64,000 bases of DNA from Acidobacteriota bacterium (GTDB lineage: Bacteria > Acidobacteriota > Thermoanaerobaculia > Thermoanaerobaculales > Sulfomarinibacteraceae). Within the stretch, counting starts at the first letter, position 1. The number at the start of each line of letters is the position of its first letter. Of the stretch, positions 7,377 through 58,733 are shown piece by piece. Where the stretch lies: contig JAADFK010000085.1 in NCBI GenBank assembly GCA_013152925.1, positions 1,448 through 65,447 of the forward strand, read 5' to 3'. The notes under the pieces are model-generated. The model worked only from the letters and a program-made list of their open reading frames with translations, was not told where the DNA came from and did not search any database. The position numbers and the translations under genes are program-made.

Positions 7377-7584
7377 GGTGTTGCAACGTTACCACGCTTG
7401 GTGGGGTGCCGCGCACCGGCCGTGACGGGGTGCCGGTGCCGGTTCCCGGGTTCCCGCCGGGCCTGCAGAGCGTGCAGAGACTGCAAGAAACGCAGACCAG
7501 ACCTGCCGGCGATCCCTCCTGCCTCACGGCCGGATGAGAGTCTAACCCATTGATGGATAGTCTCTTGAGAGAAACCGGCACGGG

Positions 7585-8619: not shown

Positions 8620-9938
<1,319 letters not shown>

Positions 9939-9942
<4 letters not shown>

Positions 9943-12538: not shown

Positions 12539-12565
12539 CACACCCCCCATTCGGCGCCTGAATAC

Positions 12566-38727: not shown

Positions 38728-41039
38728 TGCGTGTTGCCTCCCGAGGTTCGCTCCGGACAACCCAGAACTTGAGCCTTGTGATCCTTATCCTTGAGCCATC
38801 CCGTATTCACCATGTAGCTGTCGCCGAAGGGGGCGAGGAGGCTTGGTTTACCATCGCCGGACATCAACTCACCATGCTTCGTCCCGATGAAGTCACCGAG
38901 TTTTTGGTTTTTCCCCCTAGCGGAGCACTGTGCTTTCAGGAGATTCTTGATTTTTTCCAACTCCGACGTGTTCCCTTGGACATAGGTACAGAGGAGCGAT
39001 TTCAGAGCGTCGTACTGGACCCCGCACGCCGGGGTAGTTGTGTTGTCCTGATCGCCAGCGAGAGAGGTACCCACTTCGGTCGGCGTGACGGTCACCGTCG
39101 GCGTGGCCGTTGGTGTCGATGTGCTTGTCGGCGGCCGCGTCGGCGTCCTCGTCGGTTTCGGGGTGGCAGTCGGCCCCGCGGGCGTGGGGGTTGGGGTCCT
39201 CGTCGGTCTCGGTGTGGCGGTCCTCGTTGGGGTCTGTGTGACGGTCGGCGTGGCGGTGGCGGTCGGCGTGGGGGTCGGGGTGGGCTCGAGCTTGTGGAGC
39301 GCCTGACCGATCAGCGCAAGCTGACCGGTTTTGAAGCCCTGCGCCCCAAGGCCTTTCCTGATGGCCTTCCAGTAGTCGGTCTTGTCGCCGCCCGGCTCGC
39401 TCTCGTTGTCGTAGGCGCCGTCGTTTCCGATCCAGCGGACCACGGTGCGGGCGCGATCTTCGGCGGTCTCCTTTGTTCCCAGCACGTTCTTCATGGCGGC
39501 GAAGAGCCCTGCACAGGGGTCCGCCGGAGACGTCGGGGATGCCGCGGGGGATGCCGCTCCCCCGTTGGCTTTGGCATGGGCCTTCACACCATCGCTGTTG
39601 GCGGTCCCAACTTGCGGAGCGCCAGCGGGCGTGAGGGTCCCGTCCTTCGGGTGCCCACATCCGAGGATGGCGTAGCGTCGGAGCCAAAGGTCGTCAGGAT
39701 TCCCGAGATCGGCACTGAGCTTCGCAAGGTCTTCCTTTCCGACCTTCCTCTTGGCAGCCTGCTTCTTGTTGGCGAATTGGGCGAAGTGGACCAGGTACGC
39801 ATCACGGCACTCGCCGAGCAGCTTCTGTTCCGCCTCGGCGTAGGTGCCGGTTAGCTGGCCTTGTAGCTCGTTCTGGGCGAGCAGCTCGCACTCTCCATCG
39901 TAGGGCCAATGGTCAAGGTCCTTTTTCACCCTCTGCTGTTCTTCCTTCACGAAATCGTGCTGTGCGGGCCGATGGATCCATCGCAACGCGCCGTAAACGG
40001 CGGCCAGGAGGGCGATGAGCGCAAGTATGCCGGCGAGGAGAACCCTCCCAGGAATCGGCCGCGGCGGCGGCTGGGGCGCCTGGCGAGCCATGGGAGGAGG
40101 CGATGATGGGGGAGGCGGCGGACCCGGCGGGATCCGGCCGGCCGGACCCGGTGGCACGGGGGGCCCAGCATCCTGAGCCGTCTCCGGACGCCCCTGGGGA
40201 TGCCCCGTCTGCTCGTCAAGGCCCTGGCTGGCCCGTGATGGTACGCTCCGGACATAGGCCAGCACCACGGCGATGTTATCGGTCGAGCCGCTCTGCCGGC
40301 TTCGTGGTTCCACGGCCTCCACAAGTTGGCGGCTGGCGTTGCTGACGATCCGGCGAAGCGTTGCCGTGCTTGCCCGCTCATCAGTATCACCGAGCTGACG
40401 GATGTTCGCACTGATTCCCCGAAGTAGCTCCGTGGTTTTCGCGAGCGTACGGTCTCGCTTGTACAAACCATCCGTGCAGAGGAGAAAGATATCACCCGTC
40501 TCCACACCCGTTACGACCTTGTAGTTGGGACCGTGCGACCTCAACCCCCCAATGGCACTCGTGATGGCGCCACCACCCTCGGCCTGCGCATCATCGTCGG
40601 TCAATTGCTCGAGACGACCCCCACGGTACCGGTAACAGCGGCTGTCCCCAGCCCAGGAGAGCTCGACGCCATACCGACTGGCAGCCAGCGCCACCACGGT
40701 CGTCTTCATTCCGGAGAGCTCGAGACCCTTCCCGGACCGGCCAAGACCGGGCCTCGCGTCCTCACCCCGGAACAACACCAGCGAGCCGTCAGCTATCTCA
40801 ACGGCCCGGCAAAGCCGGTCCTCCAGTTTTCGCCCGGCGGAGAGTTGCACGAAGGTCTCGATCTGCTGCGTCGTCAACATCGCGGCGATTTCGCCACCGC
40901 CCCCGGTGCTCACGCCGTCGCAGACCACGGCGAGGCCGAGACCTTCGTTGACGAGGAATGCGTCCTGGTTGGGCTCCTTCAAACCTGGGTCGGTCCACCC
41001 TCCCAGGATCAGCTCAACCCTGCCCATCGATCCCCACAT
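38724..41039 (-). CDS. Membrane PP2C-family Ser/Thr phosphatase with Pro-rich segment, TM helix, periplasmic domain, PT linker and Cys-containing C-terminal domain
   Basis: PP2C motifs: [47 protein letters not shown] helix [22 protein letters not shown] linker at aa 585-655. Alternative start M5 at 41027. Confidence 0.85.
39075..39287 (-). repeat. Pro/Thr-rich low-complexity linker (coding)
   Basis: [71 protein letters not shown]. Confidence 0.9.
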
Positions 41040-43595: not shown

Positions 43596-43611
43596 CTCTT
43601 CCTCCTCCGGA

Positions 43612-46356
43612 CTATCTTTGAGCCCCACTGGACTGGGTCACACCGAGTCGCAACATACCGATGCGGTTGGTGCCCCTCTGAATGGGAACTGCCACGTCGG
43701 CCATCTGTCGTCCCTTGAGGTCGTATCGCTGTACCAGCACCTTGCTGCTACTTGCCGCTTTCCTGCTGACGGGATCCTGGAACACCGGCACCCCCATCTT
43801 GGTGAGGTCAGAATTCAGGAAAAACTCGCTGGGCCGCCTTGGAACCTCGAGTGTGCCGTCACGGCTAAACAGCCCGGCGTACGCCAGAATGCCGTAACCC
43901 ATCCGGTACCGTAATCCCTGGATGATTTCGGCCAGGCCAGCCCTCCGCTGCCCAACGGAGAGATCCGTTCTCCCCGAGATCAACTCAACGAGAATGGCGG
44001 CAACTGTCCCCATTGCCTTGGCCCTCGCTATGGCCAGGCGATCCTTCAAGTTACCCCCGACACCACTCGAACGCGTCACCGCGGCCGAGTCGAAAATGAC
44101 GATGAGCTTGCCCCATGGCGTTGCTGCCGCACTTGCCACCAGACGGCCATCCGACGACACGGCGAGGCCTCGCGCCATTGCCTGGTCAACTAATTGCCGG
44201 GTCGTACCACCGATATCGGACCCCGGTGCACCAATGCCCGCACTTCGCACCAGAGGCGTCTTCGATACCGCCTGAAGAAGCCGCCGCAGAGCGGTCTCCC
44301 GGACCCGTTGCCGGTGGGTGGCATCGAGCCCCTGAATCTCGTTCCACAAAGCCTCGAGACTATCTTGTGTCAGGTAGACGACTTCCTGGTACCCAGCGAG
44401 GTTCTGGAGGCGAAGGACCATCGCCGCTCCGAGGCGGCGACCGTAGTGTTGACACCATTCAAGATAACGATGGATGTGCGGCGCTCCGCCATTCCTCCAT
44501 GCACCCGACATCCAGCCCTTGCCAAGGACATCGAGAACATGGGCCGTTCGGGAAGCCAAGATGAATGCATCGAGTGACGGTACCGCCGGGTTGTTCTTGA
44601 AATAGGCTCCAAGAGCTGCCCAGACCTCACGCCACACTTCAGGGTCGTTTCCAGCGCGGTCGGCGGCAAGAGCGGCCAGCTCCAGCAGCTCCTTTTCCGG
44701 GAGCCTGTCGAGGCCCACCTGCTGCCGCAGCCGCCGGAACCAGGTGAGCTTCTGGGAGCTTCCCGCCGGAGCCGAACGGACACCCTCCCGCAAGAGCTCC
44801 TCGAGCTCCCGCTCTGCCCCCGCTCCCAGAACCGGAACCGTAGTGCGGAGTAGGGACCAAGCTCTTTCAACGTCTCCTTTTCGTATCAGCGCCCGAGCCC
44901 GCAACTGGTCCACCTGCGCCTTACGGTATCGACCCGACCGACAGCCCGCGATTTCGGCTGCCTGCTGGTACGCCGATGCGGCCACTGAGGGGTTGCCCGC
45001 CTCCACCGCACGGTCCCCCTTGAGGAGGGCCTCAGCACATTCCTGCATCGTGGCGACGGCCTCGAGATTCACCCGCTGAGCCAGAAGCCTCCGACCAGAC
45101 GTCGAAAGGTTCGCCACCGCTGCTGACGTTGCGAGAAGAGACTCCATGGCGTGATCCTGAACGGCCACGTTTCGTCCTTCCATCGCCGTCTGAAACGCCT
45201 TCATGTCATCCTGAAGCCTTTTGGCCAACCCCTCCACGTTCTCGGAGCAATTGGCCCGGAATTGATCCTCCAGATCAGCAGCCGGGGAACCCAGCTTCTT
45301 GAGATCATTTAGAACCGATTGAAATGCTCTCTGATCACACGAACCGATGGCCGCATCGGCGAGTTGCCGCAAACGCGCACCCTCCGCGCGACCGATCGCC
45401 CCGAGAGCGGTCGCCTTGAGGTCGGTTTCCTGTTCAAACGGTACCTGGATCTCGTCAAAAGCGCTCAGCACCTGCCGACGTCGTTGCTCGAGCTCCTCCC
45501 GTCCGAGCGTTTTCAGTCTGCCGTTATCGGCCTCTCCAACGATGGAGCTGCACGTCGCGAAGAACTTGCGATGTTTATCGAGGTTCTCGAAACGAAGGTG
45601 AAGCTTGCGGTACCGCTGTTCGACATCCTCGCGGCTGCCCAGAGCCAGGATCCAGGTTCCTGCGCACTCGAGACTTTTCCGGAACGATTCACGCTCATCA
45701 AGAGGGGGCTCACTGGTCGATTCGATGAGTTTGTTCAGCCCCCGTTCGAGGTCCGCAAGCCGTCTGTCGGCCTGCATCATCAACCGCCTCAGGCCTCCCT
45801 GGTCCCCGTTGGCGATAACATGCCGGACATCCTTCAATGTGGCCGGTTCCGTGCTACACGGCCGCGCGGGTTCCTGCTGCGCGTCAGCCAACCTCTCGTT
45901 CAGCATCGTCAACCGGTCGAGACATTGGCCAAGCTCCGTGGGGTAGGCCGGCTTCTCGTGCTTCCCCAACCGATCGAGCTCGACACGTTTCTGGGCCGAC
46001 TTATCAAGGCAATAGCCAAGCACGGTGTCCGTGGCCGCCCGGAGCCGCTGTTCCAGGACAGTCAGTTTCCGATCGGTCACCTCCGCGCACGCTTCTGGCT
46101 GAGACAGGCGTTCCACCTCGGACTGGATGTCGCGAACCTCCCGCCCGATCACGTCGCTATCACTGTCGTGATACAGCTCAAAATCAGTCCTGGCTCGTTC
46201 GAGCGGCTTGATCGCTTTTCTCAGATTCGTCAAGCGGTTCGCCAGTCCTGGCGGCACGTCGCAGGTGCTCGAGGCGCATCCCCACAGGAGCGCCATCAAA
46301 CCACCCAGCAGGCCAACAGCGACGGCCCGAACCGGCAACGAGCTGCAACTCACCAT
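43612..46356 (-). CDS. Large lipoprotein, mostly alpha-helical/coiled-coil with a beta-containing C-terminal (GAF/Cache-like?) domain
   Basis: 914 aa with lipobox GLMALLWGC. Long helical, Cys-punctuated region. C-terminal ~200 aa (...VLVQRYDLKGRQMADVAVPIQRGTNRIGMLRLGV) resembles the end of a small-molecule-binding fold. The domain call is weak. Confidence 0.65.
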   Translation of the reverse strand: MVSCSSLPVRAVAVGLLGGLMALLWGCASSTCDVPPGLANRLTNLRKAIKPLERARTDFELYHDSDSDVIGREVRDIQSEVERLSQPEACAEVTDRKLTVLEQRLRAATDTVLGYCLDKSAQKRVELDRLGKHEKPAYPTELGQCLDRLTMLNERLADAQQEPARPCSTEPATLKDVRHVIANGDQGGLRRLMMQADRRLADLERGLNKLIESTSEPPLDERESFRKSLECAGTWILALGSREDVEQRYRKLHLRFENLDKHRKFFATCSSIVGEADNGRLKTLGREELEQRRRQVLSAFDEIQVPFEQETDLKATALGAIGRAEGARLRQLADAAIGSCDQRAFQSVLNDLKKLGSPAADLEDQFRANCSENVEGLAKRLQDDMKAFQTAMEGRNVAVQDHAMESLLATSAAVANLSTSGRRLLAQRVNLEAVATMQECAEALLKGDRAVEAGNPSVAASAYQQAAEIAGCRSGRYRKAQVDQLRARALIRKGDVERAWSLLRTTVPVLGAGAERELEELLREGVRSAPAGSSQKLTWFRRLRQQVGLDRLPEKELLELAALAADRAGNDPEVWREVWAALGAYFKNNPAVPSLDAFILASRTAHVLDVLGKGWMSGAWRNGGAPHIHRYLEWCQHYGRRLGAAMVLRLQNLAGYQEVVYLTQDSLEALWNEIQGLDATHRQRVRETALRRLLQAVSKTPLVRSAGIGAPGSDIGGTTRQLVDQAMARGLAVSSDGRLVASAAATPWGKLIVIFDSAAVTRSSGVGGNLKDRLAIARAKAMGTVAAILVELISGRTDLSVGQRRAGLAEIIQGLRYRMGYGILAYAGLFSRDGTLEVPRRPSEFFLNSDLTKMGVPVFQDPVSRKAASSSKVLVQRYDLKGRQMADVAVPIQRGTNRIGMLRLGVTQSSGAQR

Positions 46357-46428: not shown

Positions 46429-49400
46429 TTATGGAGCGATCGTACCGGTCTGAGCCGGGCTGAAACCCACAGCACCCTGACCGTCGCCGGATGCGGCGAC
46501 AACCGAAATATTGTGTCCGGAGTTGGTCAACGTATGGAAACCTGCACCAAGAATCAATGTCCAGCTGTTCGTTCCCGTGGCGGGATTGTTTGACGGAATC
46601 CCAGCCCAAGTTCCGGAAATCTGGTCCCAGAACAGACCGGCGTCCGTGTCTTCGATCGTCAGTGTGACACCACTGATCGTGTCATCGTCGACCACCGTGC
46701 CCGCGATGGTCGTACCATCGTTGAGAACAAAGGGAGAGGGCCCGTCGATCGTTACCACGGGCGCCGGATTGTTTACGGTCCAGGTGAAAGATGTGGAGAC
46801 GGTGCCACCGTTCCCGTCGTTCGCCGTGACCGTGACCGTGTAGGGACTCGATGCGGAAGCGTCGGCTGCAATCGTTCCCCCAATCACCCCCGTTATACCG
46901 CCGATCGTCAGGCCTCCCGGAAGACCACTCGCCGAATAGCTCAGCGCATCACCATCCGGATCGGTGAAGCTCGTGGAAACGTTGAGGCTCATGGCATCAC
47001 CGTCGTTGTTGGTCTGATCCGAGATGCCCGTGGTCGTCGGTGGATCGTTGACTGCATTGACGGTTATTGTCACCGTCACCGTCGCCGAGTCCGCATGCCC
47101 GTCGTTGGCGTGATAGGTGAAGGAATCCGTCCCGTTGTAGTTCGCCGCCGGCGTGTAGCTGAAGCTGCCGTCACTGTTCAGGGTCAACGTTCCGTGCGAG
47201 ACAGTCGCGTCCAACACTGCTGTCAGCGCGTCACCGTCCACGTCCGTGTCGTTGGTCAACACGCCAGGAGCCGCAACGGTCAACTGGGTGTCTTCGTTCG
47301 TCGAATAGCTGTCCGCCGCCGCCACCGGTGGGTCGTTAACCGCATTGACGGTTATCGTCACCGTCACCGTCGCCGAGTCCGCATGTCCATCGTTGGCGTG
47401 ATAGGTGAAAGAATCTGTCCCGTTGTAGTTCGCCGCCGGCGTGAAGGTGAAGCTGCCGTCGCTGTTCAGGGTCAGCGTCCCGTGCGAGACAGTCGTGTCC
47501 AGCACCGCCGTCAGCGTGACGCCATCCACGTCGGTGTCATTTTGAAGCACCCCGGGTGCCACTACCGTCAGCTGCGTGTCTTCGTTCGTCGAGTAACTGT
47601 CCGGCGCCACCTGGGGCGGGATGTTGGCAATGTTCCCGCTGCTCGTCGCGGACGTGGTGGCGCCGAGGTCATCCGTAGTCTCAACCTTCAGAGTTACGTT
47701 TGAACCACCAAGGTGATCGTGGAAGCCACTCGGCAGCGTGTAGCTCCAGGTGCCAGCAGTCCAGTCGACCACGGTGATCGGAACCCAGGTTGCCGAGGAC
47801 TGCCAGGCAGAACCGTTCCAGTATTTCCCAGAATCCGCGGCCTCGATCTGGATCTGCAAACTGTAGTCGCTGGCATCGCCGCAGGAGTTGTACTCGCTAT
47901 CGCTCATGGTGCCGGTCACGGCCTGGTCGTCGTCCATGTCAGGGTAGGAGGCGTTGTCGAACGCCACAGCGGGATCGTCGTTGGCCAGCGTCGCCGTCAG
48001 GGTGGGCGTGTTGCAGGAATGGATCTCTCCCTGGCACGCCGTGCAGGTTCCCTCGGCGTTGTCCACCGCGAGCACCGAGATGCGTACGTCGTGGTTCACG
48101 TGGCCCGCCAGGAGCTCGTGCGGGATCGGCCAGCTCCAGGTGTGAGCCGCATCGTCATGGCTCACCGTGAACCACGTCTCAGTCGTCACCCATTGGTTGC
48201 TCGCTCCGTCGAAATACTCATTCCCCGATTGAATGAGTAGCCGCACCTCGGCCACCTGGCCGTCGTCATCGCTGAAGGTGCCGTGAATACCACCGGTCTC
48301 GCACTCGTGGAGGGCGGCGTCCCCATTGCCGAGGACGAAGGTCTCGATGGTCGGCAGCCCCTCGGTCACCACCGTGGCCGGATCGCTGACGGTATTGGGG
48401 TCTTCGCCCGGTTTGGGCGCCACGTTCTCCTGTGGATTGTGGGCATAGACGAGGATCTGGTGGTCAGACGTCACGGGCATGACCGGATTCCCGTTGGCAT
48501 CGTTCACTGGCAGGGCGAGGGCGTTGGCCCAATCTCCGGATGCCACACCCCAACCACTGGCGATGCGGTAGACGGGCCCAGTTGTCTGGTCCCTCCAGAT
48601 TCGGTTGCCGCTGCTGTCCACCGCGAGCCAGTAGTCGCCTGCCGATATGGCTCCATTGCCATCGGCATCCAGCAGGAAAGCGTATTGCAGCGTACTCCGT
48701 GCCACGGCTGGATCCGCCGAGTTTCTTTGCAGGAAGACATTCAATCCGGTGGCGCCGCAACCGACATTGCCGCTGTTGGGATTGTCCGCTTCACCCTGCT
48801 GGAAGCCGTCTGGAGAAAGGGGCCGGACAAAGACCGCCCAATCTGGCCTCAGGACGGCCGAGCTGTCATGCGCCGCTTGGTCCAGCAAACGACCGCCGAG
48901 GGCGGCGAGCTCCTGATCTCCTCCCAAAGTGACGGAACTGACCGTCACCGGCTGGAGCAGCACATCCGGCGAGCCCGATAGGGCCGCGCTGGGAGCAGCC
49001 GTCGGATTGCCCGAGGCACCGCCGCCCTGGAGTTGGTACCAACTTTCACCGCTGGCAGGGTTGTACTCCCGTGCCGTGGACCAGATATCGAACCCCTCTC
49101 CCGCCACGGGAAGATCTCCCCCGATTCCGGCGCCTTCACGGCTGACGAAGCCACCGGTGATCTCCGGAACGAGGTAGTCAACCGGGATCGGATTGCTGGC
49201 ATTGGAAGATTCGCTCGTGTTTCCACCACCGTCGGTCGCCCGAACGGTCCAGACCACCAAGAACCCTTCGGCGTTGGAGCGATTTGCCATGTCGAGGGTA
49301 AGGTCGCCCCAATTGTTGTTACCGTTCCAGGTGTTCTCTTCCTTGGCAGGATCGAGCTGAGGCTGACCCGTCGCCGAGAACCACGCCTGAGAGGAGATCC

Positions 49401-52400
49401 ACTGCTGGGAAGTGGGATTCCAATATCTGCCATCGTCCACACGTTGAATCATGACGTCGAAAGCATCCACGTGGCCGATACATTCGTGTGCGTCGAAATC
49501 GAGTTGATGCGTGGCATCCGTCAGAAAACCATTTGTCAACAACCACTGGAATACCCCTATGTTGGCCGGGCTTTCATCCTGCCACGCGGCCTGACTGCTC
49601 GGAGCCGTTCCCACGGTTTGTACCGGGTCCTCCGACGTGCCACTGTTGGGGCTGACCGTTGCCGTATGAGTTACGGTTATCGGAACGTCATCGTTGACCG
49701 GCGGAACGATCACTTGGAAGACCGCCATACCATCGCTGTCGGTGATAACAGGCATGCTCGTAAGGATGGTCTCCTTCGCGTAGTCTTGTGGGTCGTTTGG
49801 ATCGAGGAACTTGTTGAGCTCGACGCGGGCGTTGACCACCGGCTGGTTGTTCTCGCCCATGAGCGTGACAGTCACCTGGACGGTTTCTCCGGTATCCACG
49901 ATGCCGTCGCCATTGCAATCGCTGCCGTCCGTCGTACCGGCGACCGGGCTCGAATTGCCCATGACAACTGTTGACGCAGCCTCGTCGAGGCGCCACGATG
50001 TCTCATCGTTCACCGTGGTTTCCGAACGGTCACCCACTGTGTTCTGGTCGCTCTGGTTGTACAGGACCGCGCTCCACTTGCTCAGGCCAATTGTCTTGGT
50101 ATGGACGGTGAAGGTTGCCTCACCATTCTCATTCGTGCTGGCCTGGATGGGTGTGCTGTCCGAAGGCGTGTCTTCGAGCCGGTCGGAGGACAGCTCCACC
50201 GTAAAGCCAGGCCAAACGGGGGAGTCATCCGCTTCCTTCAACGTCACCGTCATGGTTTCGTTGCGGCCAACGACGCTATCTTCCGCGACCGCCGACTCGA
50301 TCTTCCGCACCTGCCATTCACATTGAACCGACGTGTCCAGATCAATGCTGGACAATACGCCCCCATCCGCATTGACCGTTGACCTCTTTGCATACTCGAC
50401 GCTGTAGGAGGAAATACCAGGAGCATGGGAGGTTACTTCGAAGGAAGCTCTTCCGTCGGCATCCGTCACCTGCCACTGCGGGTAGTCCAAACCGTCACCC
50501 GCACCCTCGAAACGGAAATAATACGGCCTCGAGCTCTTCACGGTAACCGAATACCCCGGCAGGGGCCGGCCGTTGCTATCCCTTAACGTGATATCCACCC
50601 TCTCCCAAGCACCCACTTCCGAAGATTCTTCTGCAACTGAAATCGCGGAGTGCTGGGAGTCCGGAAGTGCCGTCCCGTAGCCCTCGGGCTGTACCACAGG
50701 GATGAAGAGCGAGTCATTTGTCACGTTGTCGGTCCTGGTCACATATGCCGTCAACTCACCATCCTGAGCCGCCACTTCAAGCAGGCAGCCCTGCAGAAGG
50801 CTCATGCCGTTGCTATCCACCTGCTCATTGAGAGGCACCAACGGGGTTGAGAAGAAGGAAGACAAGCAGGGAGCCGTGTCCTCCTCGCAGTTCAAGCGTC
50901 CCAGCTCATTCTGGCGCAGGGCATGGGGCGCCAGATCGACCGTTACCGCCATCGATATCACCTGGCTACCATCAGCACCTTTGAGCTGGAGAGCCGCACC
51001 CTCATGATCCATGAGCCGGAGCACAGCCGTGGCCTTCTTGTCGCCGACGTTTGCCAGTCCGAAGCTCTCTCGAATGGCGTTCGACCTGAGGTCCAACGCG
51101 AAGATCACGCCGGCATCACTACCGGCGGTCAGAACCTGGGGCGTGGCGGCATACCCGGGCACCCTCTGTCCATATGTGCATGGGACCGTTCCATCCTCAC
51201 CCTCGCAGGTGGCCAGCGTGTAAGTTCGGGAGGTCACCAACACATCGTCCTTCCCCGGACCATCGATTTCCACGAGCAGAAGCCCCTTACCGGCGCTGAA
51301 ATTCGGATCAAGGTAACGGCAGACGTCGTGAATGGAAAGGGTTTGCCCGGCCAGCAAGGACACTGGGGCCATGGGCGGGTTGGGAATCTCATGCTCCCCA
51401 TCAGTGGGGAAGAAACGGAAGCCGTACGTTACGTCCTTGTTTCCTGTATTGGCAAGCGTGAGATCAGTCACCCAGAAACTGTTGTTCTTCCCAGGAAGCC
51501 GGGCAATCACGGGTACGATGACCCTGTCCCCTCCCGAGCCCAGAAGCCCGGTTGTGCGTCCCGGAAGCGAAATGGGGTCGTCGGAGTCGTTATCGACCTG
51601 GCTGACCATCACGGAGTATTTGACGCCATCGGGCCCCACGGGCTCCACATTGAGGCGTGCTGGATGCACCGAGTTTCCGAGGCTGACGTAGAGCGGCGTT
51701 CGAGGGGGTACTGTGACCTCCTGATTCCAGATCTCGTCGCCTGTGTCGTTCAACGCTACAATCTTGAAGGATGCTTCCTGGTCCCCGAAAACCGTCAAAT
51801 GAAGGTTGACCCGGGTCGAGATTGCGTGATCACCGTCGTTTCCTGGAATCACCAGAGCCACACGCAAAGGCGTTGGAATGACAGCAACCCAATTCAGAGG
51901 TTGCGCGACGACGAACTGGCCCCGGCTGGCCACGATAGGGTTGTCCGAATTTGGGTCAGAAACCTCGGCAACCGAATACACTTCCCCAGCCATCATCGGG
52001 AACTTGGCGGGCCAGGGATCTTGCACGGTCGTACCAGTTGTCGTCACGGGTTTGACGTAGATCCAACCTTTCGAGGCGGTCACGATCCCGAAGAGCTGGT
52101 CCAGGATGTCGTCATACTGGCGCAGAGAGTTTGGACGGCCTTTGGCCTCGAGGCGAAGACGACGAACGATCGCTGTTTCGTGATCTTGCTCCGGATGGAG
52201 AAAAACATTTGAAGCCTGATTGTTTGGGTTCCCAGGCACGCCGGCCTTGGTGATGACGTAACCCACCTCGTACGTCCGGGCCTTGTTCTCCTGGTTGAAG
52301 AACCACGCCGCAGTTTTCCACACCACGCCACCAACACCGGGCTGTGCCGCGACCACCGGCAATACTGTCATCGGCTCGGAACCGTCTACCGAAGGTGGAG

Positions 52401-55053
52401 CTTGCGTCATATTTACAGCCAATGGAATCTTGGCCGTGACCGGTTCCGAGAACAGATCGTCGGTGGTCATCCGGAGGTAGTACTGGTGTGAGGCCAGCAC
52501 GTTGGCATTCCCAGCAATATCAAACTGCAGGGTTGCCTCATTTTCATCAACGGAAGACGTTGCATCTTCCACAACCACCTTGGCATCCTTCAGAACGACA
52601 CTATCCGGAGTTTCGTTTCCCGGCATGGGTACGAGGTCGAGCTTCGCAGTGAAACCGGGACCACCACGGTTCGTCCTCAGTTTGAGGGTAAATTGGTCTC
52701 CCTGTCGACCGTAGACGGTGTACGCCTTTAATAGTCCGTTCCGGTCCAAGGGAGCCACCAACACGCGCTCCACACACCGCAACCTCATGTTCCCGCCATC
52801 CCCGGTGCCAAGGAGCCGAATCACGACTCGATTCTCGTCGGAGTGCAAGGTTGGAAGCGTGTACGAAATGTCGGTTTGGAAAGAGCTCCGGCTCTCAAGG
52901 TCAATGGTCTTGCCGGCCAGTTCACGAGCCCAACTTGGTTCAACGGAGGCAGTACAGAAATCGGTCTTAGCCGAAGCTTTGACCAAGAGCACCTGTAAGG
53001 TCACTTCAGCAGGGAGTACACCCGCATTGAAAAGCTGGACGCCCTTGTGCCGATACTCCTTGTTGTTTTTCTGGAAGAAAGGATCTGGCCAGGGGAAGGT
53101 TTCCTCTGTTGCATTGAAGCCGACGTCTGCCACCGCTTCGATCTGGAGCATACGATCACGCTCAGAGAAAAGGCGACATTTCTGTCGAACGTTACCGGTC
53201 ATCTTGTAGAGGTCGCCCCCTTTGGCCTGAGCATCGATGAGGTCGCCATCCTCTACCTGCTGCCAGGGAACAAGCAGGACCTTGATCGTACCCACCCCAT
53301 GAACCGAGGAAGGAAGCATCACAGTCAGGGGTATGTTCGTGCCGAGTTGGTTGCTGTCGATCTTGTAAACGCCACGATACTTCTGTTTGGTCTGATCGAC
53401 GTTGGAGGAAAGCACCTCGAGCCGCGCCTCGCGACTCGTGTCGGGGCCCTTGCTGGCCAGTTCTCCCGAGAGGTCCACATCGTCGTCGGGATCGGCGTAT
53501 GTAACCACCGCCGCCACAGGATCGGGACAGTTCCCCAGTTCCGTCGCATTGAGGGTAACCGTGATGGGCGTGCCTGCTATCTCATGGGCCGGGGCCGGCT
53601 TCTCAGGCCCCTCTGCCGTGGGGTCGTACCACGGCGCACTGTCAGGCCCCACAACGGCGAGCTCGTAGCCGGGGATCGCCGGAGAGCCGTCCAGTTCCAA
53701 AACGTTGTTCTCGAGATGGATGTCATACGTAGTGTGACCGTCCTGCACCTGCGGCGTGAAGCCATCGATTCTGATCCAATGACCTTTCCATTGAGTGCTG
53801 TCACCGGCCCAACGCACGCCGTACCATGCCGGATCGTAAACATAGAGGAAGAGCCGCCCGTCCCGCTCTGGTGCCGGGCCACCGAGATACCGGTTCTCCA
53901 GTCGGATTCGCCCCTCACGCTCGATGCGGGCCACCATGTTGTACAGATTGTTCCTGCTGAGTGGAGCATTGCCCCAATATCCCCACACCCCGTAGACCGG
54001 ATCTCCGAGCTCGCCCACTTCGTTGGGGAAATTTGTGCTTTCGTCGAGAGAGGTCATTGGATTCCCCGGCATCGTACTGAGGGGACTGGAGTAAAGTCGA
54101 AAATAACCAGAACCCGTTTCGTCTCCATGAACCGCCAATGGATCCTTGAGCTTCAAGGTGTCTACCTCAGAAGCAACATCGGCTGGCCCGGCGGCGGCAT
54201 CCTCCACATACCAGATATCGAAGGCCACTTGGTTGACACTGCACCGAAGGTCTTTGGACGGACCGCCGGCCGTATCATCTTCCGCCAGCCTCACCTCGTT
54301 GACCCACGCGTCTGTAAGGTCAGCGAGCTCACCCTGGCATTGGTTCTTTGCATCCCACCTGAGAGAAGGAACGGTAGTCGCCGGAGGCGGATTCAGCTGC
54401 CGGCTATCCGTTTTGTCGGCGTCAATGAGGTAGCCATCGCTTAGATCAGTCTCGTTCACATCCTCGAGATCTCCTGGCCCGGGTCCCATGATTCGCAGGT
54501 CAACGGGGTTTTTCTCGTAACCAGTACAAATGGATGCCAGATCTCCTATCAACTTCTCTTGATCAGCCGTTTGCACCGGGTTGTAGTTTTCGTCTACGAC
54601 CACCAATGAAAGGACAAGGTTGCCACGACCGAGCCCCTGCAGCAGGGAAAGCTGAGCGGAATCGACCTCGAGCGAATGTTCTCCAGGTTCCAACTCAGTG
54701 ACATCAGTGATCTTGAGCTCGTTCGCCTCGATAACATCGTCGGAAGAGCCCAGCAAGACCACATGCTCGCCATCATTCAACACGAAATCGCTGCCAACAC
54801 GGTACTTTAATAGAAAAACCTTCGACCCATCCGGGAGACCTTGAGGGCTTTTCGCCCACGGCCTCACGAAGAGAATCTCGAGATTGCTCTCGTCCATTAC
54901 GGAACGGCCTGATGTTCCCTCATCCACTGACGCCAGCGCCTTGGAACCGGCCTGCCTTCCCGAAAGAATCATCTGTGCCCACGATGGGGGCGCGCCAAGG
55001 GCTAGGACGATGAGCCCGAACACCAATACCACTAGACGGCTGTGAGCTTTCAT
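46429..55053 (-). CDS. Giant secreted cadherin-like / Ig-like repeat protein (2874 aa), putative adhesin
   Basis: ORF 46429..55296. Start ATG 55053 follows AAGGAGGAA. Signal peptide MKAHSRLVVLVFGLIVLALGAPPSWAQ. Three invasin-type Ig-like segments (...TDADGRASFEVTS, ...NENGEATFTVHT, ...DSDGMAVFQV). Two 96-aa cadherin-like/VCBS-type repeats (DSYSTNEDTQLTV..GVLxNDTDVDG...NAVNDPP). One dystroglycan-type cadherin-like module (FTDPDGDALSYSASGLPGGLT). Confidence 0.88.
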   Translation of the reverse strand: MKAHSRLVVLVFGLIVLALGAPPSWAQMILSGRQAGSKALASVDEGTSGRSVMDESNLEILFVRPWAKSPQGLPDGSKVFLLKYRVGSDFVLNDGEHVVLLGSSDDVIEANELKITDVTELEPGEHSLEVDSAQLSLLQGLGRGNLVLSLVVVDENYNPVQTADQEKLIGDLASICTGYEKNPVDLRIMGPGPGDLEDVNETDLSDGYLIDADKTDSRQLNPPPATTVPSLRWDAKNQCQGELADLTDAWVNEVRLAEDDTAGGPSKDLRCSVNQVAFDIWYVEDAAAGPADVASEVDTLKLKDPLAVHGDETGSGYFRLYSSPLSTMPGNPMTSLDESTNFPNEVGELGDPVYGVWGYWGNAPLSRNNLYNMVARIEREGRIRLENRYLGGPAPERDGRLFLYVYDPAWYGVRWAGDSTQWKGHWIRIDGFTPQVQDGHTTYDIHLENNVLELDGSPAIPGYELAVVGPDSAPWYDPTAEGPEKPAPAHEIAGTPITVTLNATELGNCPDPVAAVVTYADPDDDVDLSGELASKGPDTSREARLEVLSSNVDQTKQKYRGVYKIDSNQLGTNIPLTVMLPSSVHGVGTIKVLLVPWQQVEDGDLIDAQAKGGDLYKMTGNVRQKCRLFSERDRMLQIEAVADVGFNATEETFPWPDPFFQKNNKEYRHKGVQLFNAGVLPAEVTLQVLLVKASAKTDFCTASVEPSWARELAGKTIDLESRSSFQTDISYTLPTLHSDENRVVIRLLGTGDGGNMRLRCVERVLVAPLDRNGLLKAYTVYGRQGDQFTLKLRTNRGGPGFTAKLDLVPMPGNETPDSVVLKDAKVVVEDATSSVDENEATLQFDIAGNANVLASHQYYLRMTTDDLFSEPVTAKIPLAVNMTQAPPSVDGSEPMTVLPVVAAQPGVGGVVWKTAAWFFNQENKARTYEVGYVITKAGVPGNPNNQASNVFLHPEQDHETAIVRRLRLEAKGRPNSLRQYDDILDQLFGIVTASKGWIYVKPVTTTGTTVQDPWPAKFPMMAGEVYSVAEVSDPNSDNPIVASRGQFVVAQPLNWVAVIPTPLRVALVIPGNDGDHAISTRVNLHLTVFGDQEASFKIVALNDTGDEIWNQEVTVPPRTPLYVSLGNSVHPARLNVEPVGPDGVKYSVMVSQVDNDSDDPISLPGRTTGLLGSGGDRVIVPVIARLPGKNNSFWVTDLTLANTGNKDVTYGFRFFPTDGEHEIPNPPMAPVSLLAGQTLSIHDVCRYLDPNFSAGKGLLLVEIDGPGKDDVLVTSRTYTLATCEGEDGTVPCTYGQRVPGYAATPQVLTAGSDAGVIFALDLRSNAIRESFGLANVGDKKATAVLRLMDHEGAALQLKGADGSQVISMAVTVDLAPHALRQNELGRLNCEEDTAPCLSSFFSTPLVPLNEQVDSNGMSLLQGCLLEVAAQDGELTAYVTRTDNVTNDSLFIPVVQPEGYGTALPDSQHSAISVAEESSEVGAWERVDITLRDSNGRPLPGYSVTVKSSRPYYFRFEGAGDGLDYPQWQVTDADGRASFEVTSHAPGISSYSVEYAKRSTVNADGGVLSSIDLDTSVQCEWQVRKIESAVAEDSVVGRNETMTVTLKEADDSPVWPGFTVELSSDRLEDTPSDSTPIQASTNENGEATFTVHTKTIGLSKWSAVLYNQSDQNTVGDRSETTVNDETSWRLDEAASTVVMGNSSPVAGTTDGSDCNGDGIVDTGETVQVTVTLMGENNQPVVNARVELNKFLDPNDPQDYAKETILTSMPVITDSDGMAVFQVIVPPVNDDVPITVTHTATVSPNSGTSEDPVQTVGTAPSSQAAWQDESPANIGVFQWLLTNGFLTDATHQLDFDAHECIGHVDAFDVMIQRVDDGRYWNPTSQQWISSQAWFSATGQPQLDPAKEENTWNGNNNWGDLTLDMANRSNAEGFLVVWTVRATDGGGNTSESSNASNPIPVDYLVPEITGGFVSREGAGIGGDLPVAGEGFDIWSTAREYNPASGESWYQLQGGGASGNPTAAPSAALSGSPDVLLQPVTVSSVTLGGDQELAALGGRLLDQAAHDSSAVLRPDWAVFVRPLSPDGFQQGEADNPNSGNVGCGATGLNVFLQRNSADPAVARSTLQYAFLLDADGNGAISAGDYWLAVDSSGNRIWRDQTTGPVYRIASGWGVASGDWANALALPVNDANGNPVMPVTSDHQILVYAHNPQENVAPKPGEDPNTVSDPATVVTEGLPTIETFVLGNGDAALHECETGGIHGTFSDDDGQVAEVRLLIQSGNEYFDGASNQWVTTETWFTVSHDDAAHTWSWPIPHELLAGHVNHDVRISVLAVDNAEGTCTACQGEIHSCNTPTLTATLANDDPAVAFDNASYPDMDDDQAVTGTMSDSEYNSCGDASDYSLQIQIEAADSGKYWNGSAWQSSATWVPITVVDWTAGTWSYTLPSGFHDHLGGSNVTLKVETTDDLGATTSATSSGNIANIPPQVAPDSYSTNEDTQLTVVAPGVLQNDTDVDGVTLTAVLDTTVSHGTLTLNSDGSFTFTPAANYNGTDSFTYHANDGHADSATVTVTITVNAVNDPPVAAADSYSTNEDTQLTVAAPGVLTNDTDVDGDALTAVLDATVSHGTLTLNSDGSFSYTPAANYNGTDSFTYHANDGHADSATVTVTITVNAVNDPPTTTGISDQTNNDGDAMSLNVSTSFTDPDGDALSYSASGLPGGLTIGGITGVIGGTIAADASASSPYTVTVTANDGNGGTVSTSFTWTVNNPAPVVTIDGPSPFVLNDGTTIAGTVVDDDTISGVTLTIEDTDAGLFWDQISGTWAGIPSNNPATGTNSWTLILGAGFHTLTNSGHNISVVAASGDGQGAVGFSPAQTGTIAP
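47038..47613 (-). repeat. Two tandem 288-bp near-identical coding repeats (96-aa cadherin-like modules)
   Basis: Repeat 1 is 47038-47325 and repeat 2 is 47326-47613 by codon arithmetic. Protein copies differ at roughly 10 of 96 residues. The DNA is visibly near-identical over long runs. Confidence 0.9.
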
Positions 55054-55096
55054 CTCGGTTTTCCTCCTTCGATGACAATCGGACGCGTCATACTCA

Positions 55097-55112
55097 AGCA
55101 AGGAGGGTGCCA
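55097..55112 (-). promoter_or_regulatory. Sigma-54 promoter of the giant-gene operon
   Basis: The minus strand reads TGGCAC-CCTCC-TTGCT (exact TGGCAC-N5-TTGC), 44-59 nt upstream of ATG 55053. An AT-rich tract lies immediately upstream (55113-55180). Confidence 0.7.
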
Positions 55113-55255
55113 ATAGACAAAACAGTGAGATTTCGTATGTTATAGCTGGGAAGTTGGTAGGTAGCCGACGAATTCTTGCTGCCCCGCTCATCATCCTATG
55201 AGTCAAACCCGAACTCTCGTCGCTCCTCAATTCAACCAACATGTCGCCGCAATGG

Positions 55256-55269
55256 GGTTCCCGGGAACC
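55256..55269. promoter_or_regulatory. Perfect 14-bp palindrome GGTTCCCGGGAACC, candidate enhancer (UAS)
   Basis: Located about 145-157 bp upstream of the -24 element. The 10-mer GGTTCCCGGG also occurs about 130-145 bp upstream of the other sigma-54 promoter (7441-7450). Confidence 0.3.
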
Positions 55270-55577
55270 TACTCCGCCCGTCGCTGCCGTTACCAACTGT
55301 GGCTGATCGTGGCGACGCCACTGACGATTCCCTCATATCCTGTCAGACCGGCTGTTATCTCCCGGGCCACTTGGCTCCGTGATCCAATTACGCTCCCCGA
55401 TCAACACCGAAAGCCATGACCCGGAGGCTTCGATTCCTTCCAGCCCTCCATGAGAGAAATGACACCAGCCGTAACTCTTCTGTTGGGTATCCATCCCGTG
55501 AGGCAATTCGGTTCCGAGGAAGAAAAATCCCTGTTACATCAACCAGGGTCAATGATGTTTCTTGGCAATCACTCGCG

Positions 55578-57428
55578 TCATTCGAGCTCCAGGCGCTTCA
55601 TCTTCATTGCCAAGCCATTGCGCGAAATGCCCAGCAACTTGGCAGCCTTGGAGCGATTGCCCTTTGTTCTGGCAAGAGCGATTGTGATGAGCTTCCGTTC
55701 CAATTCGCTGAGACGGGTTTCGAGAACGAGATTGCCACCAGGATCCGGTTGATCAAGCATGCTGGCCTCATCGGGGAATAGAACGAAGTGGGAAAGAAGC
55801 CTTGAACTGATAGCTTGCCCCTCTGGACAGAGGTAAACGAGACGACGAACCTCATGTTCGAGCTCACGCACGTTGCCGGGCCACGGAGCGGATACGAGCG
55901 CCTCTAGCGTCTTGACCGTGAGGCCACGAATCGATTTGCAAAGCTCTCGCGCACAACGACGCAGGAAATGTTCCACCAGTGCAGGAATGTCTTCCCGTCG
56001 CTCACGCAGCGGTGGAATCGGAAGAATAAACCCCGCGAGCCGGAAATAGAGATCCCGCCGGAACGTACCTGATGCCAATCGTCGTTCAAGATCCGTGTTA
56101 GTGGCCGAGATTACACGAACGTCGACGTCCAGCGGCCAGCGACCACCCACTGGCGTGATCTCCATCTCCTGGAGAACTCTCAGAAGCTTCGCTTGGAGAT
56201 CTGTGGACATATCTCCAATCTCATCAAGGAAGAGGACACCTCCTTCTGCCAGCTGAAACTTCCCTTTTCTCGCCTCAACACCCGTCGCGACGCCGCGCTC
56301 GATCCCGAACAACTCGGCCTCAAGGAGTTCTGAAGGTATGGCGGCACAGTTCACGGCCACAAAAGGTCCATCGCTACGGTCTGACGATGCATGAAGCAAA
56401 CGGGCCACGAACTCCTTACCCACACCAGTCTCTCCGGTGATAAGAACGGGCAGGTTACCCTTAAGTAACTGGCGAATCTGATCGTACACAACCTTCATGG
56501 AATCCGACTCTCCGGCTACATATCCGTCCGAAAAATTCAAGTGAGGAAATGTGCGCTTCTCTCCGCTGACTCGCAATGGTGCCAACTCGGACTTTGAGTG
56601 AATAAACATGCGGAGACATATTTCAAGTAGTGGCCCCATCGCCCGAGCGGGTTGGAAACCTCCTAGCAACACAATTCCATACGGGGTTTTTCCAGGGGTA
56701 GCGGTCACGGCCCACGCAATGCTCTCACCTTGCCCTTTCGCACCCGAGAGCATGGTCGCCTCGGATTCTCCAACCTCGGCCACAGCTCTCATTGCAATCC
56801 TCAGGGCGCCATCATCCGGGAAATGAAACGGATCTCCCGAGGCACAAAGCACAATCGGGTCTTCATCTCCCGACCACTGGTAAAGGCAAGCTCCACGTGC
56901 GTCAAGTCCCATGCGAAGAGTCTTCAACGCCAACTCCACGTCCGGGTCATAGGCACCGATCAGAAAACCTGCCACCTTGTTCAATACATTTAGCCATTGC
57001 CGGGACTCTCTGCCTTGATTACCCGCCCGGGTATCTGTGTCGTGTTCCAAGGGGGAAGCCTCATTGTTCGTACCCAGCACCCCGCCTTCCATTGAGATCG
57101 CCAATTCGGCGTCTTTGCGATCAACTTCAGAAAGCAGAAACACTGCCGGCCCGAACCCTATCCACTCGCCAGGACGCACAACCGCCCGCTTCACCTTCGC
57201 ACCGTTGAGGTAGGTGCCATTCTTACTCCCCACGTCTTCCACTTCGATCTGGCCGATTCCAGAACGAACAACAGCGTGTTTCCGCGAAACACCTGCCATG
57301 GGAATAACAATGTCGTTACTCTCGTTGAGACCAACTCGGTACTCGCCCTTTACGAGGTCAAAGATCATGCAACATCCGTCGATCTCCCCAACCAGCCTCA
57401 TGCAACGCTTTTCGTTGTTCGTGCTCAT
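55578..57428 (-). CDS. FHA-GAF-AAA+ sigma-54 enhancer-binding protein with non-canonical GAFTGA loop
   Basis: Start ATG 57428 (MSTNNEKRC...). FHA: VGLNESNDIVIP..GVSRKHAVV...GSKNGTYLNG. GAF-like middle. AAA+ core with GETGVGKE, LFLDEIGD, RRDLYFRL. The GAFTGA position reads GVATGV. C-terminal HTH (RSKAAKLLGISRNGLAMKMKRL). Confidence 0.88.
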   Translation of the reverse strand: MSTNNEKRCMRLVGEIDGCCMIFDLVKGEYRVGLNESNDIVIPMAGVSRKHAVVRSGIGQIEVEDVGSKNGTYLNGAKVKRAVVRPGEWIGFGPAVFLLSEVDRKDAELAISMEGGVLGTNNEASPLEHDTDTRAGNQGRESRQWLNVLNKVAGFLIGAYDPDVELALKTLRMGLDARGACLYQWSGDEDPIVLCASGDPFHFPDDGALRIAMRAVAEVGESEATMLSGAKGQGESIAWAVTATPGKTPYGIVLLGGFQPARAMGPLLEICLRMFIHSKSELAPLRVSGEKRTFPHLNFSDGYVAGESDSMKVVYDQIRQLLKGNLPVLITGETGVGKEFVARLLHASSDRSDGPFVAVNCAAIPSELLEAELFGIERGVATGVEARKGKFQLAEGGVLFLDEIGDMSTDLQAKLLRVLQEMEITPVGGRWPLDVDVRVISATNTDLERRLASGTFRRDLYFRLAGFILPIPPLRERREDIPALVEHFLRRCARELCKSIRGLTVKTLEALVSAPWPGNVRELEHEVRRLVYLCPEGQAISSRLLSHFVLFPDEASMLDQPDPGGNLVLETRLSELERKLITIALARTKGNRSKAAKLLGISRNGLAMKMKRLELE

Positions 57429-58733
57429 CTCACAGGACCTCCCTGAACTTCGCCCAGCGGCAACATCTGATTCTCCGAGCGAAACCTGCAAACTCCACGC
57501 CACGATCGCTTTGGCGGGGAATCGACAAACAAAGAGCTTCTCTGACGGTCAACAAGAACAGTCATCCTCTGGGCGCCTCCGCATGAACGACCCTTTACCA
57601 ACGCTCTCCCACCGGCCATCGGTCTCCTCCCCGGAATGTCCAACCAAAACCGGCGGATGTGTCCAACTTATCACCGGTGTTGAGCCTTTGTGCCGTCATC
57701 ATCATCCTCGAGATCGACGTGATTCCCCCACCCGATCCTCCGTAGGTGACGTTTGTTGCATTGGCGTGTGAAACTCCAACAGTCTTGTCCTTCTCGAGCC
57801 ACTTGCGAGGACATCAAACAAAACTGGCCAGTTTGGAACTCGGACATCTGACAGAAAAAGATTACGGCGCAAAAACCATGTCAAGAGTTGCTACCGGGAT
57901 TGTAGTCTTACCCCCCCCTCCAACTCCCTGGGAAGCTATTCCTATTCTGTCATGGTCGCCTCATATCCCAATCGCCTTCCATTACGCAATCCGATCTGGG
58001 TGTTCCACCAAAACCATTCTACCCCCGCTCTCAGAGTCGTTTCCATGGCGAGTGCCTGCTCTCTCCTATTCAGGAAGAAGGTGGAGGTGGTCAACCTGGT
58101 GAGGGTGAGCGGTCAGTCGAGGCGGGAGGCTCGAGATCTTGGCGTGCTGAAGGATGCGCCGCACAATTGGGTGAAGCAGACCTCAATTGATGTCGGGCTG
58201 GGTTGCTCCGAGAATTGATGACAATGGAGATGAGAGGTCTTCGTTCCTTGGTCTTCCTTCCAGCCGGTGCCATGACGTTCCGGGTCGGGATTTGGCGGGT
58301 ATCCACCAGCGGGTGGGGGCGTGCGCATGGACGAAAGAACACTTTGCTGGGCTCCCGAAGGGGACGGGTCATCCGGCGCTGCAGGACGTGTGCGGCCGCC
58401 CGCCGTGGGAGAGCTGCCCGCCGGCCGTTTCCTCCTCAAGGAAGCTCTCTGCAGCGGCGGCGCGGGGGTTGTCCTCGCCGCCCTGTTGGCGCGCGCCCAC
58501 CTCTGGTGGGACGAGGTGGGACCGTCCGATCTGGCGGTGCGCTCCTTCACCCACGAGCCGTTGGCGGTCAGCCCAGCAGCGCTTCCGCCAGCGTGCCAGG
58601 GCTCACGCTGGAACACCCCCGGTCGCATCTCCATCCTCTCTCGTCGTTCGTTTATCTTCTTCTTCCCGGCGCACTGCTCCTCACCCCTCGCTCCCTTGGC
58701 TCGTTTGTTCCGGAGCGGCTCAAGGGTGGGTGG

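Follow-up and report, generated by a model that had tools for sequence, protein, structure and literature searches.

A conserved sigma-54-type promoter and an adjoining gene for its probable FHA-domain activator before a giant cadherin-repeat gene of an uncultured acidobacterium

This study addressed the question of how a giant gene encoding bacterial Ig/cadherin-like repeats is likely to be switched on in an uncultured acidobacterium, and by which activator. The gene lies on contig JAADFK010000085.1, within a stretch of 64,000 nucleotides (the window, to which all coordinates refer unless another locus is named), and is separated by a spacer from a gene for an enhancer-binding protein (EBP) with an FHA domain. 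An earlier note on this DNA had placed an exact sigma-54 promoter in the spacer, 44 nt from the giant-gene ATG, and comparison with orthologous loci argues that this is a genuine, conserved promoter for the giant gene, with the product of the adjacent FHA-EBP gene as its most likely activator. The features on which the argument turns are these.

55097 to 55112, minus strand: predicted sigma-54 promoter of the giant gene, TGGCACCCTCCTTGCT, with the -24 element TGGCAC at 55112-55107 and the -12 element TTGCT at 55101-55097.
55054 to 55096, minus strand: segment from the promoter to the ATG, comprising the predicted leader, a conserved GAyyGTC block and the Shine-Dalgarno (SD) sequence GAAGGAGGA.
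46429 to 55053, minus strand: giant gene, whose 2874-aa product has bacterial Ig/cadherin-like repeats and, at its N-terminus, a signal-peptide-like stretch.
55578 to 57428, minus strand: EBP gene, 616 aa, with an FHA domain (about residues 8-112), a GAF-like domain (about 138-279), a sigma-54 AAA+ domain and a Fis-type helix-turn-helix (HTH).

The most plausible start of the giant open reading frame (ORF) is the ATG at 55053, which is preceded by a strong SD sequence on the minus strand at 55070-55062, and the stop codon of the activator gene (TGA, 55580-55578) leaves a spacer of 524 nt between the two genes. Within this spacer, TGGCACCCTCCTTGCT agrees with TGGCAC-N5-TTGCW at 16 of 16 positions, is correctly oriented, and ends 44 nt from the ATG. 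Exact matches to TGGCAC-N5-TTGC were found three times in the 64-kb window, where 0.07 would be expected, and all three are situated just 5' of gene starts in the right orientation, namely those of the DUF2202 gene, lpxC and the giant gene. If the C of the GC dinucleotide is taken as position -12, the transcription start site is predicted to lie near 55086, giving a leader of about 33 nt.

Conservation of the promoter could be assessed in two orthologous loci, L081 and L086, which have the same gene order as the window: EBP, a spacer of about 500 nt (484-577 nt in the three loci), and a giant cadherin-repeat gene. The N-terminal 600 aa of the giant protein are 58-60% identical to the products of the downstream genes in these loci, and their activators are 55-59% identical to the window EBP. 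The promoter is kept in both (TGGCATCGTCTTTGCT in L081, TGGCACCGTTCTTGCT in L086) at the same distance from the ATG. Together with the leader block GAyyGTC and the SD sequence it makes up the alignable blocks of the three spacers, the remainder having diverged beyond alignment. Given this clean phylogenetic footprint, with the element retained in both orthologues and the sequence around it lost, TGGCACCCTCCTTGCT appears to be a genuine sigma-54 promoter, and on this point the proposal of the earlier note was borne out. A comparison of the three spacers revealed no conserved small ORF, and an Rfam scan of the 64-kb window found no RNA family.

That the adjoining gene specifies an FHA-type EBP, as had also been proposed, was confirmed by Pfam matches to FHA (PF00498, E = 4.8e-14), Sigma54_activat (PF00158, E = 7.7e-62), AAA_lid_14 and HTH_8 (E = 1.1e-13), and in L081 and L086 the EBP gene is again found together with the promoter and a giant gene. 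The Walker A and B motifs are present as GETGVGKE and LFLDEIGD. In an AlphaFold2 model of the protein, based on 63 homologues (pLDDT 87.8), an FHA beta-sandwich (8-112) is joined by a disordered linker to an alpha/beta domain (138-279), after which come the AAA+ domain and the HTH. When the middle domain was modelled alone (pLDDT 90), GAF folds were matched, among them that of Nlh1, an EBP of Aquifex, while the AAA+ fold matches those of ZraR, NtrC1, FleQ and PspF. The protein is 100% identical to P0001, which is listed at NCBI as 'FHA domain-containing protein [Acidobacteria bacterium]' and comes from a metagenome-assembled genome (MAG); one relative is named Thermoanaerobaculales. Among the 120 best hits, 119 were relatives with 45-61% identity, most of them full-length, and the loci of the two closest full-length relatives, P0002 (59%) and P0003 (56%), share the gene order of the window. 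Between the window EBP and its orthologues there is near identity of the HTH (AKLLGISRNGLAMKMKRL vs AKLLGISRNGLALKMERL). The closest fragment (61% identity over the aligned part, in locus L089) is not syntenic and was rejected as an orthologous locus. Exact-sequence look-ups of the window EBP and the giant protein returned no record, and no match was obtained in a homologue search with the EBP N-terminus alone, in metagenome scans with the EBP N-terminus and with the giant-protein alignment, or in a word-index search with the giant-protein N-terminus. A genome-contig scan with the full EBP gave generic AAA+ matches (residues about 330-641) and no orthologues.

A second promoter, which was absent from the earlier note and is new here, precedes the EBP gene itself.

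57487 to 57502, minus strand: TGGCGTGGAGTTTGCA, a sigma-54-type promoter with GG-N10-GC and two mismatches, separated by 58 nt from the EBP start codon (ATG, 57428).

An equal or better site is located about 24-60 nt 5' of the EBP start in all seven independent loci of the close family (the window, L081, L082, L083, L085, L086 and L088). The density of sites with at most two mismatches across these loci is 8.1e-5 per strand-nucleotide, from which about 0.006 would be expected in any 70 nt. Alignment of the EBP upstream regions gave no conserved block beyond the promoter. As the EBP genes of the close family themselves have sigma-54-type promoters, positive autoregulation of the EBP is likely. 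The idea of a self-regulating circuit, already put forward in the earlier note, gains support in this way, by a different route than the one envisaged there.

Some additional features of the EBP upstream regions may be mentioned. A perfect 14-bp palindrome, AAACTGGCCAGTTT, occurs at 57821-57834, about 330 bp 5' of the sigma-54-type promoter of the EBP gene. In L081, the spacer 5' of the EBP gene (9297-9600 of that locus) contains repeated GAATGATGAATG / GCCGCCCGCCCG units that resemble a tandem array. Between the EBP upstream spacer and a divergent recN gene there is an ORF of 173 aa (58113-58634, minus strand), which has no Pfam match.

The giant gene, the product of which matches Big_9, Cadherin_4/5, He_PIG and Big_1 of Pfam, heads a cluster of genes on the same strand, reaching as far as about 22 kb in the window. 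It is followed, with small gaps or overlaps, first by a gene for a 914-aa protein of unknown function and then by genes for an FHA and FG-GAP protein, a PP2C phosphatase, a Hanks-type kinase, a VWA protein, and a protein with a pseudopilin-like C-terminus. The presence of kinase and PP2C genes in the cluster, like that of the FHA domain in the activator, had been predicted beforehand and was confirmed by Pfam.

41094 to 43628, minus strand: FHA/FG-GAP gene, 844 aa, with a canonical FHA domain and FG-GAP/beta-propeller repeats (Pfam).
38724 to 41039, minus strand: PP2C-family phosphatase gene, 771 aa (Pfam PP2C_2, E = 8e-9).
35046 to 37031, minus strand: Hanks-type Ser/Thr kinase gene, 661 aa (Pfam Pkinase, E = 1.7e-35).

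Terminator-like matches across the cluster did not exceed the shuffle expectation, and none fell in the gaps between cluster genes. Because the intergenic gaps contain no terminator-like site, it is plausible that the whole cluster is co-transcribed as one long operon.

The reading favoured here, which as a whole is considered rather probable, is that of a functional RpoN promoter and FHA-EBP unit that would drive the giant gene and include a feedback switch. Sigma-54 holoenzyme requires the help of an ATPase to open DNA. We infer that the RpoN promoter in the 524-nt spacer transcribes the giant Ig/cadherin-repeat gene, and probably also the cluster behind it, including the FHA/FG-GAP, PP2C and Ser/Thr kinase genes, and that the ATPase needed for promoter opening is most likely the EBP encoded directly upstream. 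The FHA and GAF-like domains would keep the AAA+ ring inactive until a signal arrives, probably from Ser/Thr kinase and phosphatase signalling. Once triggered, the EBP would raise its own level, by means of its own sigma-54-type promoter, as well as that of the cluster, so forming a positive-feedback switch.

Several observations weigh against such a unit. No rpoN gene is present in the 64-kb window, its presence in the genome being implied by the three EBP genes of the window. In L090 and L092, two more distant family loci, the EBP gene is not preceded by a sigma-54 site, and no enhancer motif was found that the orthologues have in common or that recurs at both promoters of one genome. The L1 loop of the EBP (residues 377-382) reads GVATGV and not GAFTGA, the Phe being replaced. 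At the position of the FHA 'GR' Arg, the 63 relatives have mainly Ser (30) or Ala (28), and Arg in only one. Lastly, the 661-aa kinase of the window shares only its kinase domain with the kinases of about 900 aa that accompany related EBPs, and is not orthologous to them.

The FHA domain bears most directly on the supposed phospho-threonine (phospho-Thr) input. It aligns to the FHA domains of Rv1747 and GarA but reads VGL where Rv1747 has IGR and GarA has AGR, with Leu at residue 34 (57326-57328) in the place of the Arg. In the Gly-Arg pair of FHA domains, as known from work on Rad53 and GarA, it is the Arg that directly binds the phosphate. Since the FHA domain of the EBP is without this residue, canonical phospho-Thr recognition by it is doubtful. 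The other signature residues, those of S-R-x-H and N-G, are well kept among the 63 relatives (S48 and N70-G71 invariant, H51 in 57), and the FHA domain of the 844-aa cluster protein is canonical (IGRG ... SRKHA).

Gene neighbourhood, on the other hand, links the family to kinases. Related EBP genes are directly 5' of a gene for a Ser/Thr kinase of about 900 aa in L083 (12620-15316) and L092 (9934-12681), and these two kinases are 28% identical over 860 aa, that is, over their full length (E = 5e-53), with a long helical, TPR-like C-terminal region. Apparent remnants of the kinase occur in L082, L085 and L089: in the first two, kinase fragments are split from the EBP gene by AbiEii-type insertions, and in L089 the ORF after the EBP gene (1447-2307) resembles only the C-terminal part of the partner kinase. 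A phospho-Thr loop is plausible but unproven, being backed by this neighbourhood and undermined by the non-canonical FHA pocket. The more far-reaching proposal, that a large acidobacterial FHA/GAF-like/AAA+ family, with a non-canonical FHA domain and sigma-54 contact loop and with sigma-54 promoters for its own genes, couples Hanks-type kinase/PP2C signalling to sigma-54 by a self-amplifying loop, here rewired to a giant-adhesin cluster of about 33 kb with its own kinase, phosphatase and canonical FHA protein, would seem unlikely.

Enhancers of sigma-54 promoters are normally situated in the upstream spacer, and here the following elements of it were considered.

55256 to 55269, no strand assigned: perfect 14-bp palindrome, GGTTCCCGGGAACC, a candidate EBP site centred about 152 bp 5' of the -24 GG.
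55503 to 55521, no strand assigned: partial second copy, GCAATtcGGTTCCgaGGAA as against GCAATggGGTTCCcgGGAA at 55249-55267, 15 of 19 positions identical and 254 bp further from the promoter.
55309 to 55321, no strand assigned: second perfect dyad, GTGGCGACGCCAC (GTGGCG-A-CGCCAC), an alternative candidate site about 200 bp 5' of the -24 element.
55113 to 55180, no strand assigned: AT-richer tract between the promoter and the dyads, a mild dip in GC content.

One explanation for the architecture of the spacer, tentative at best, is that GGTTCCCGGGAACC is the upstream activating sequence for an EBP dimer and that bending at the AT-rich tract delivers the EBP to the promoter. The palindrome is a perfect dyad at a typical enhancer distance, and the chance that a 524-bp spacer contains at least one perfect 14-bp palindrome is 0.032. 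The distance of about 150 bp given for it in the earlier note agrees with this. Its excess over chance is only marginal, and perfect 14-mers are common in the window (11, compared with 5.95 in dinucleotide shuffles), most of them within coding sequence and nine outside the two spacers that flank the EBP gene. As a conserved enhancer it did not hold up, for it is absent from the spacers of both L081 and L086, which also have no TTCC-N0-6-GGAA dyad despite the near identity of the HTH, and no related motif was found 5' of the window's own EBP promoter. It is also unrelated in sequence to AAACTGGCCAGTTT, which in turn is not conserved in L081 or L086.

The partial second copy, within which GGTTCCGAGGAA spans 55510-55521, overlaps the T-run of a hairpin that follows the EBP stop codon. 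With a fixed comparison window its probability by chance is P = 0.001, but this value is inflated by the post-hoc choice of window and becomes 0.04-0.15 when corrected for it, so that the copy was rejected as a strong second site. A signal that persists is that of the half-site GGTTCC/GGAACC: the three closest loci, with two regulatory regions each, contain nine occurrences in these regions, where 2.3 would be expected. With the window's own spacer excluded, six remain against about two expected, an enrichment of about 3-fold (P about 0.015), in a hexamer test that was chosen after inspection of the data, and this enrichment is a lead and not a result. L081 also carries the 10-mer CGGGAACCCC, on the opposite strand.

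The second dyad has counterparts in L086 (GTGGAG-AAACG-CCCCAC) and, in degenerate form, in L081, with different spacing. The 21-nt block with these counterparts is common to L081 and L086 (E = 0.01). With the differing spacing and a chance per spacer of 0.06-0.10, this evidence is weaker still than the half-site signal. Broader searches gave nothing beyond the null: the best dyad shared among ten upstream regions was a GC-rich pattern in five of them, the best 12-mers shared among orthologues equalled the null, and so did motifs that the giant-gene upstream region had in common with the EBP upstream region of the same genome. As the leading candidate for the DNA site of the EBP, possible although far from probable, one may put forward the palindrome GGTTCCCGGGAACC or sites composed of its half-site GGTTCC.

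The remaining elements of the spacer fared less well. GC content in the 70 nt 5' of the -24 element is 43%, compared with 53% for the spacer and about 55% nearby, and the corresponding values in L081 and L086 are 69% and 60%. The IHF consensus WATCAANNNNTTR had no match with one mismatch or fewer in any of the three spacers. The tract, taken in the earlier note for a possible bending site, is thus a mild and unconserved dip without an IHF consensus, and was rejected as a bending or IHF site. The same was true of the suggestion that the 10-mer GGTTCCCGGG marks an enhancer shared with the DUF2202 promoter. The positions given for the promoter (55112-55097), the 10-mer (7441-7450), the palindrome (55256-55269) and the end of the activator gene (55578) were all correct. 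In the whole window, the 10-mer has three matches (two of them the palindrome itself) against 0.62 expected, and the chance that two 250-nt upstream regions share a word of at least 10 nt is about 0.19. The DUF2202 promoter has its own divergent pair of histidine kinase and response-regulator EBP genes, and the recognition helices of the three EBPs of the window differ. A common enhancer was rejected on these grounds. The 10-mer at 7441 lies inside short direct repeats, GGTGCC GGTGCC GGTTCCC GGGTTCCC (7420-7460, plus strand), about 140 bp 5' of the DUF2202 sigma-54 promoter, and these repeats could be an enhancer for the divergent EBP pair (3348-7023).

A different view of the locus is that the EBP and giant genes form a single transcript from the promoter at 57502-57487, with the promoter at 55112 as only a booster and the enhancer 5' of the EBP gene. 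The two genes are on the same strand, the EBP gene has a conserved sigma-54-type promoter, the palindrome AAACTGGCCAGTTT lies some 330 bp upstream of that promoter, and little appears to stop transcription after the EBP gene other than the following element.

55520 to 55548, minus strand: weak terminator-like hairpin, CCCUG-N10-CAGGG then AUUUUUCUU, after the EBP stop codon.

This hairpin is the centroid structure of the fold, but its stem is limited to 5 bp, shuffled sequences fold as well as the region does, and the terminator pattern scan missed it. The single transcript is still judged unlikely, as the internal promoter is the better match (no mismatches, compared with two) and is the conserved element, all three lineages keep about 500 nt between the two genes, and the palindrome AAACTGGCCAGTTT is not conserved either.

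For an RpoN promoter and FHA-EBP unit, one difficulty is the L1 loop, which is without the Phe of GAFTGA. In PspF this residue, like the Thr of the motif, is in contact with region I of sigma-54 (PMC3467059). The loop of the window EBP is substituted, not deleted, and the Thr is kept. Among the 120 best hits it reads GVATGV in 92, GIATGV in 18 and GAATGV in five. The two response-regulator EBPs of the window carry GAFTGA, and in a control set of 80 unrelated EBP loci, taken from the generic AAA+ matches of the genome-contig scan, GAFTGA was found in 64, GSFTGA in 10 and GVATGV in one. This sole GVATGV control, L014, is a GAF-EBP of a Myxococcota MAG, and after its gene comes a sigma-54 site at a distance of 43 nt from the following ORF. 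Only one published mention of a loop of the family type, G[VIA]ATGV, was found, that of DVUA0100 from Desulfovibrio vulgaris, which also has GVATGV and which, as the authors of that study concluded from regulon reconstruction, can still activate sigma-54 promoters in spite of the substitutions (PMC4641369). Because GVATGV-type EBPs are consistently paired with sigma-54 promoters, the comparison supports the view that such EBPs still act on sigma-54 promoters.

It is highly improbable that the promoter is real but served by another activator, such as a response-regulator EBP of the window, with the FHA-EBP acting as a repressor or at sigma-70 promoters. In favour of this reading, the loop has lost the Phe of GAFTGA, EBPs without a GAFTGA motif have been reported to act at sigma-70 promoters (bioRxiv 10.1101/2023.06.06.543975) and the searches defined no binding site for the FHA-EBP. 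Against it, the FHA-EBP gene has stayed next to the promoter in three lineages, GVATGV-type EBP genes are accompanied by sigma-54-type promoters in all seven close loci and in L014, DVUA0100 is predicted to activate sigma-54 promoters, the loop retains its Thr, and each of the other two EBPs has an adjacent sigma-54 promoter of its own.

Other sigma-54 promoters in the window and in related loci are of interest in their own right. The lpxC gene (11627-12550, minus strand) is preceded by two tandem sigma-54-type promoters 46 nt apart, CGGCACAACCATTGCA at 12626-12611 and TGGCACGCTCCTTGCG at 12580-12565, and is followed on the same strand by a response-regulator EBP gene (8620-9942) and, between the two, a histidine kinase gene (9939-11249). 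It would be unusual for a lipid A gene to be controlled by sigma-54 together with a possibly auto-regulated two-component operon. In L092, a distant member of the family, a sigma-54 promoter, TGGCAGCGCGCTTGCT, occurs at 13241-13256 (and in L093 at 5359-5374), 26 nt before a gene for a secreted protein of PKD (Ig-like) repeats. The order in L092 is response regulator, FHA-EBP, 915-aa Ser/Thr kinase, 81-aa ORF, sigma-54 promoter and PKD protein, a layout that resembles the pairing of EBP, sigma-54 promoter and Ig-repeat protein in the window.

Sigma-54 promoters are all-or-none switches, and for this reason the presence of one before a gene for a 2874-residue Ig/cadherin-repeat protein points to tightly gated surface remodelling in this uncultured acidobacterium, represented by a MAG. 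The locus offers a clean handle for heterologous reporter work. Its wider value is in the activator family, which is abundant in metagenomes, linked to kinases by gene neighbourhood, and carries natural substitutions at two residues commonly regarded as essential, the Phe of GAFTGA and the Arg of the FHA domain. If the family does activate sigma-54, it would show, as an experiment of nature, to what extent the textbook contact surface is needed, and if the coupling to kinase signalling is true, it would represent a phospho-Thr to sigma-54 pathway outside the Myxococcota, with a variant mode of sigma-54 contact.

The unit shares with the classical ones (NtrC/glnAp2, NifA/nifH and PspF/pspA) an exact TGGCAC-N5-TTGC promoter, an adjacent activator with AAA+ and Fis-type HTH domains, and a long upstream spacer. 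It differs from them in that its enhancer could not be defined by conservation, it lacks an IHF consensus, L1 is GVATGV rather than GAFTGA, and the sensor consists of FHA and GAF-like domains where theirs is a receiver domain. Myxococcus xanthus reportedly possesses FHA-domain EBPs, which similarly have an N-terminal FHA domain on a sigma-54 AAA+ activator, and whose genome encodes many Ser/Thr kinases. In a comparison by description only, the present family is set apart from these by its acidobacterial (Thermoanaerobaculia-like) origin, an additional GAF-like domain, the missing FHA 'GR' Arg, the GVATGV loop, and a sigma-54-type promoter of its own. Auto-regulated and cascading EBPs are also said to occur in M. 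xanthus, and those that are auto-regulated resemble the present EBP in having a sigma-54 promoter before the EBP gene and positive feedback, which here is deduced from sequence conservation alone. The GVATGV loop is shared by DVUA0100 of D. vulgaris Hildenborough, a single-component EBP in which the long N-terminal region is uncharacterised (Kazakov et al. 2015, PMC4641369). It is likewise encoded in a sigma-54-dependent operon that it is predicted to activate, its target being a plasmid type III secretion system (PMC4641369). The regulatory unit described here is of a familiar kind, close to the FHA-EBPs of Myxococcus and to DVUA0100, in a poorly studied phylum.

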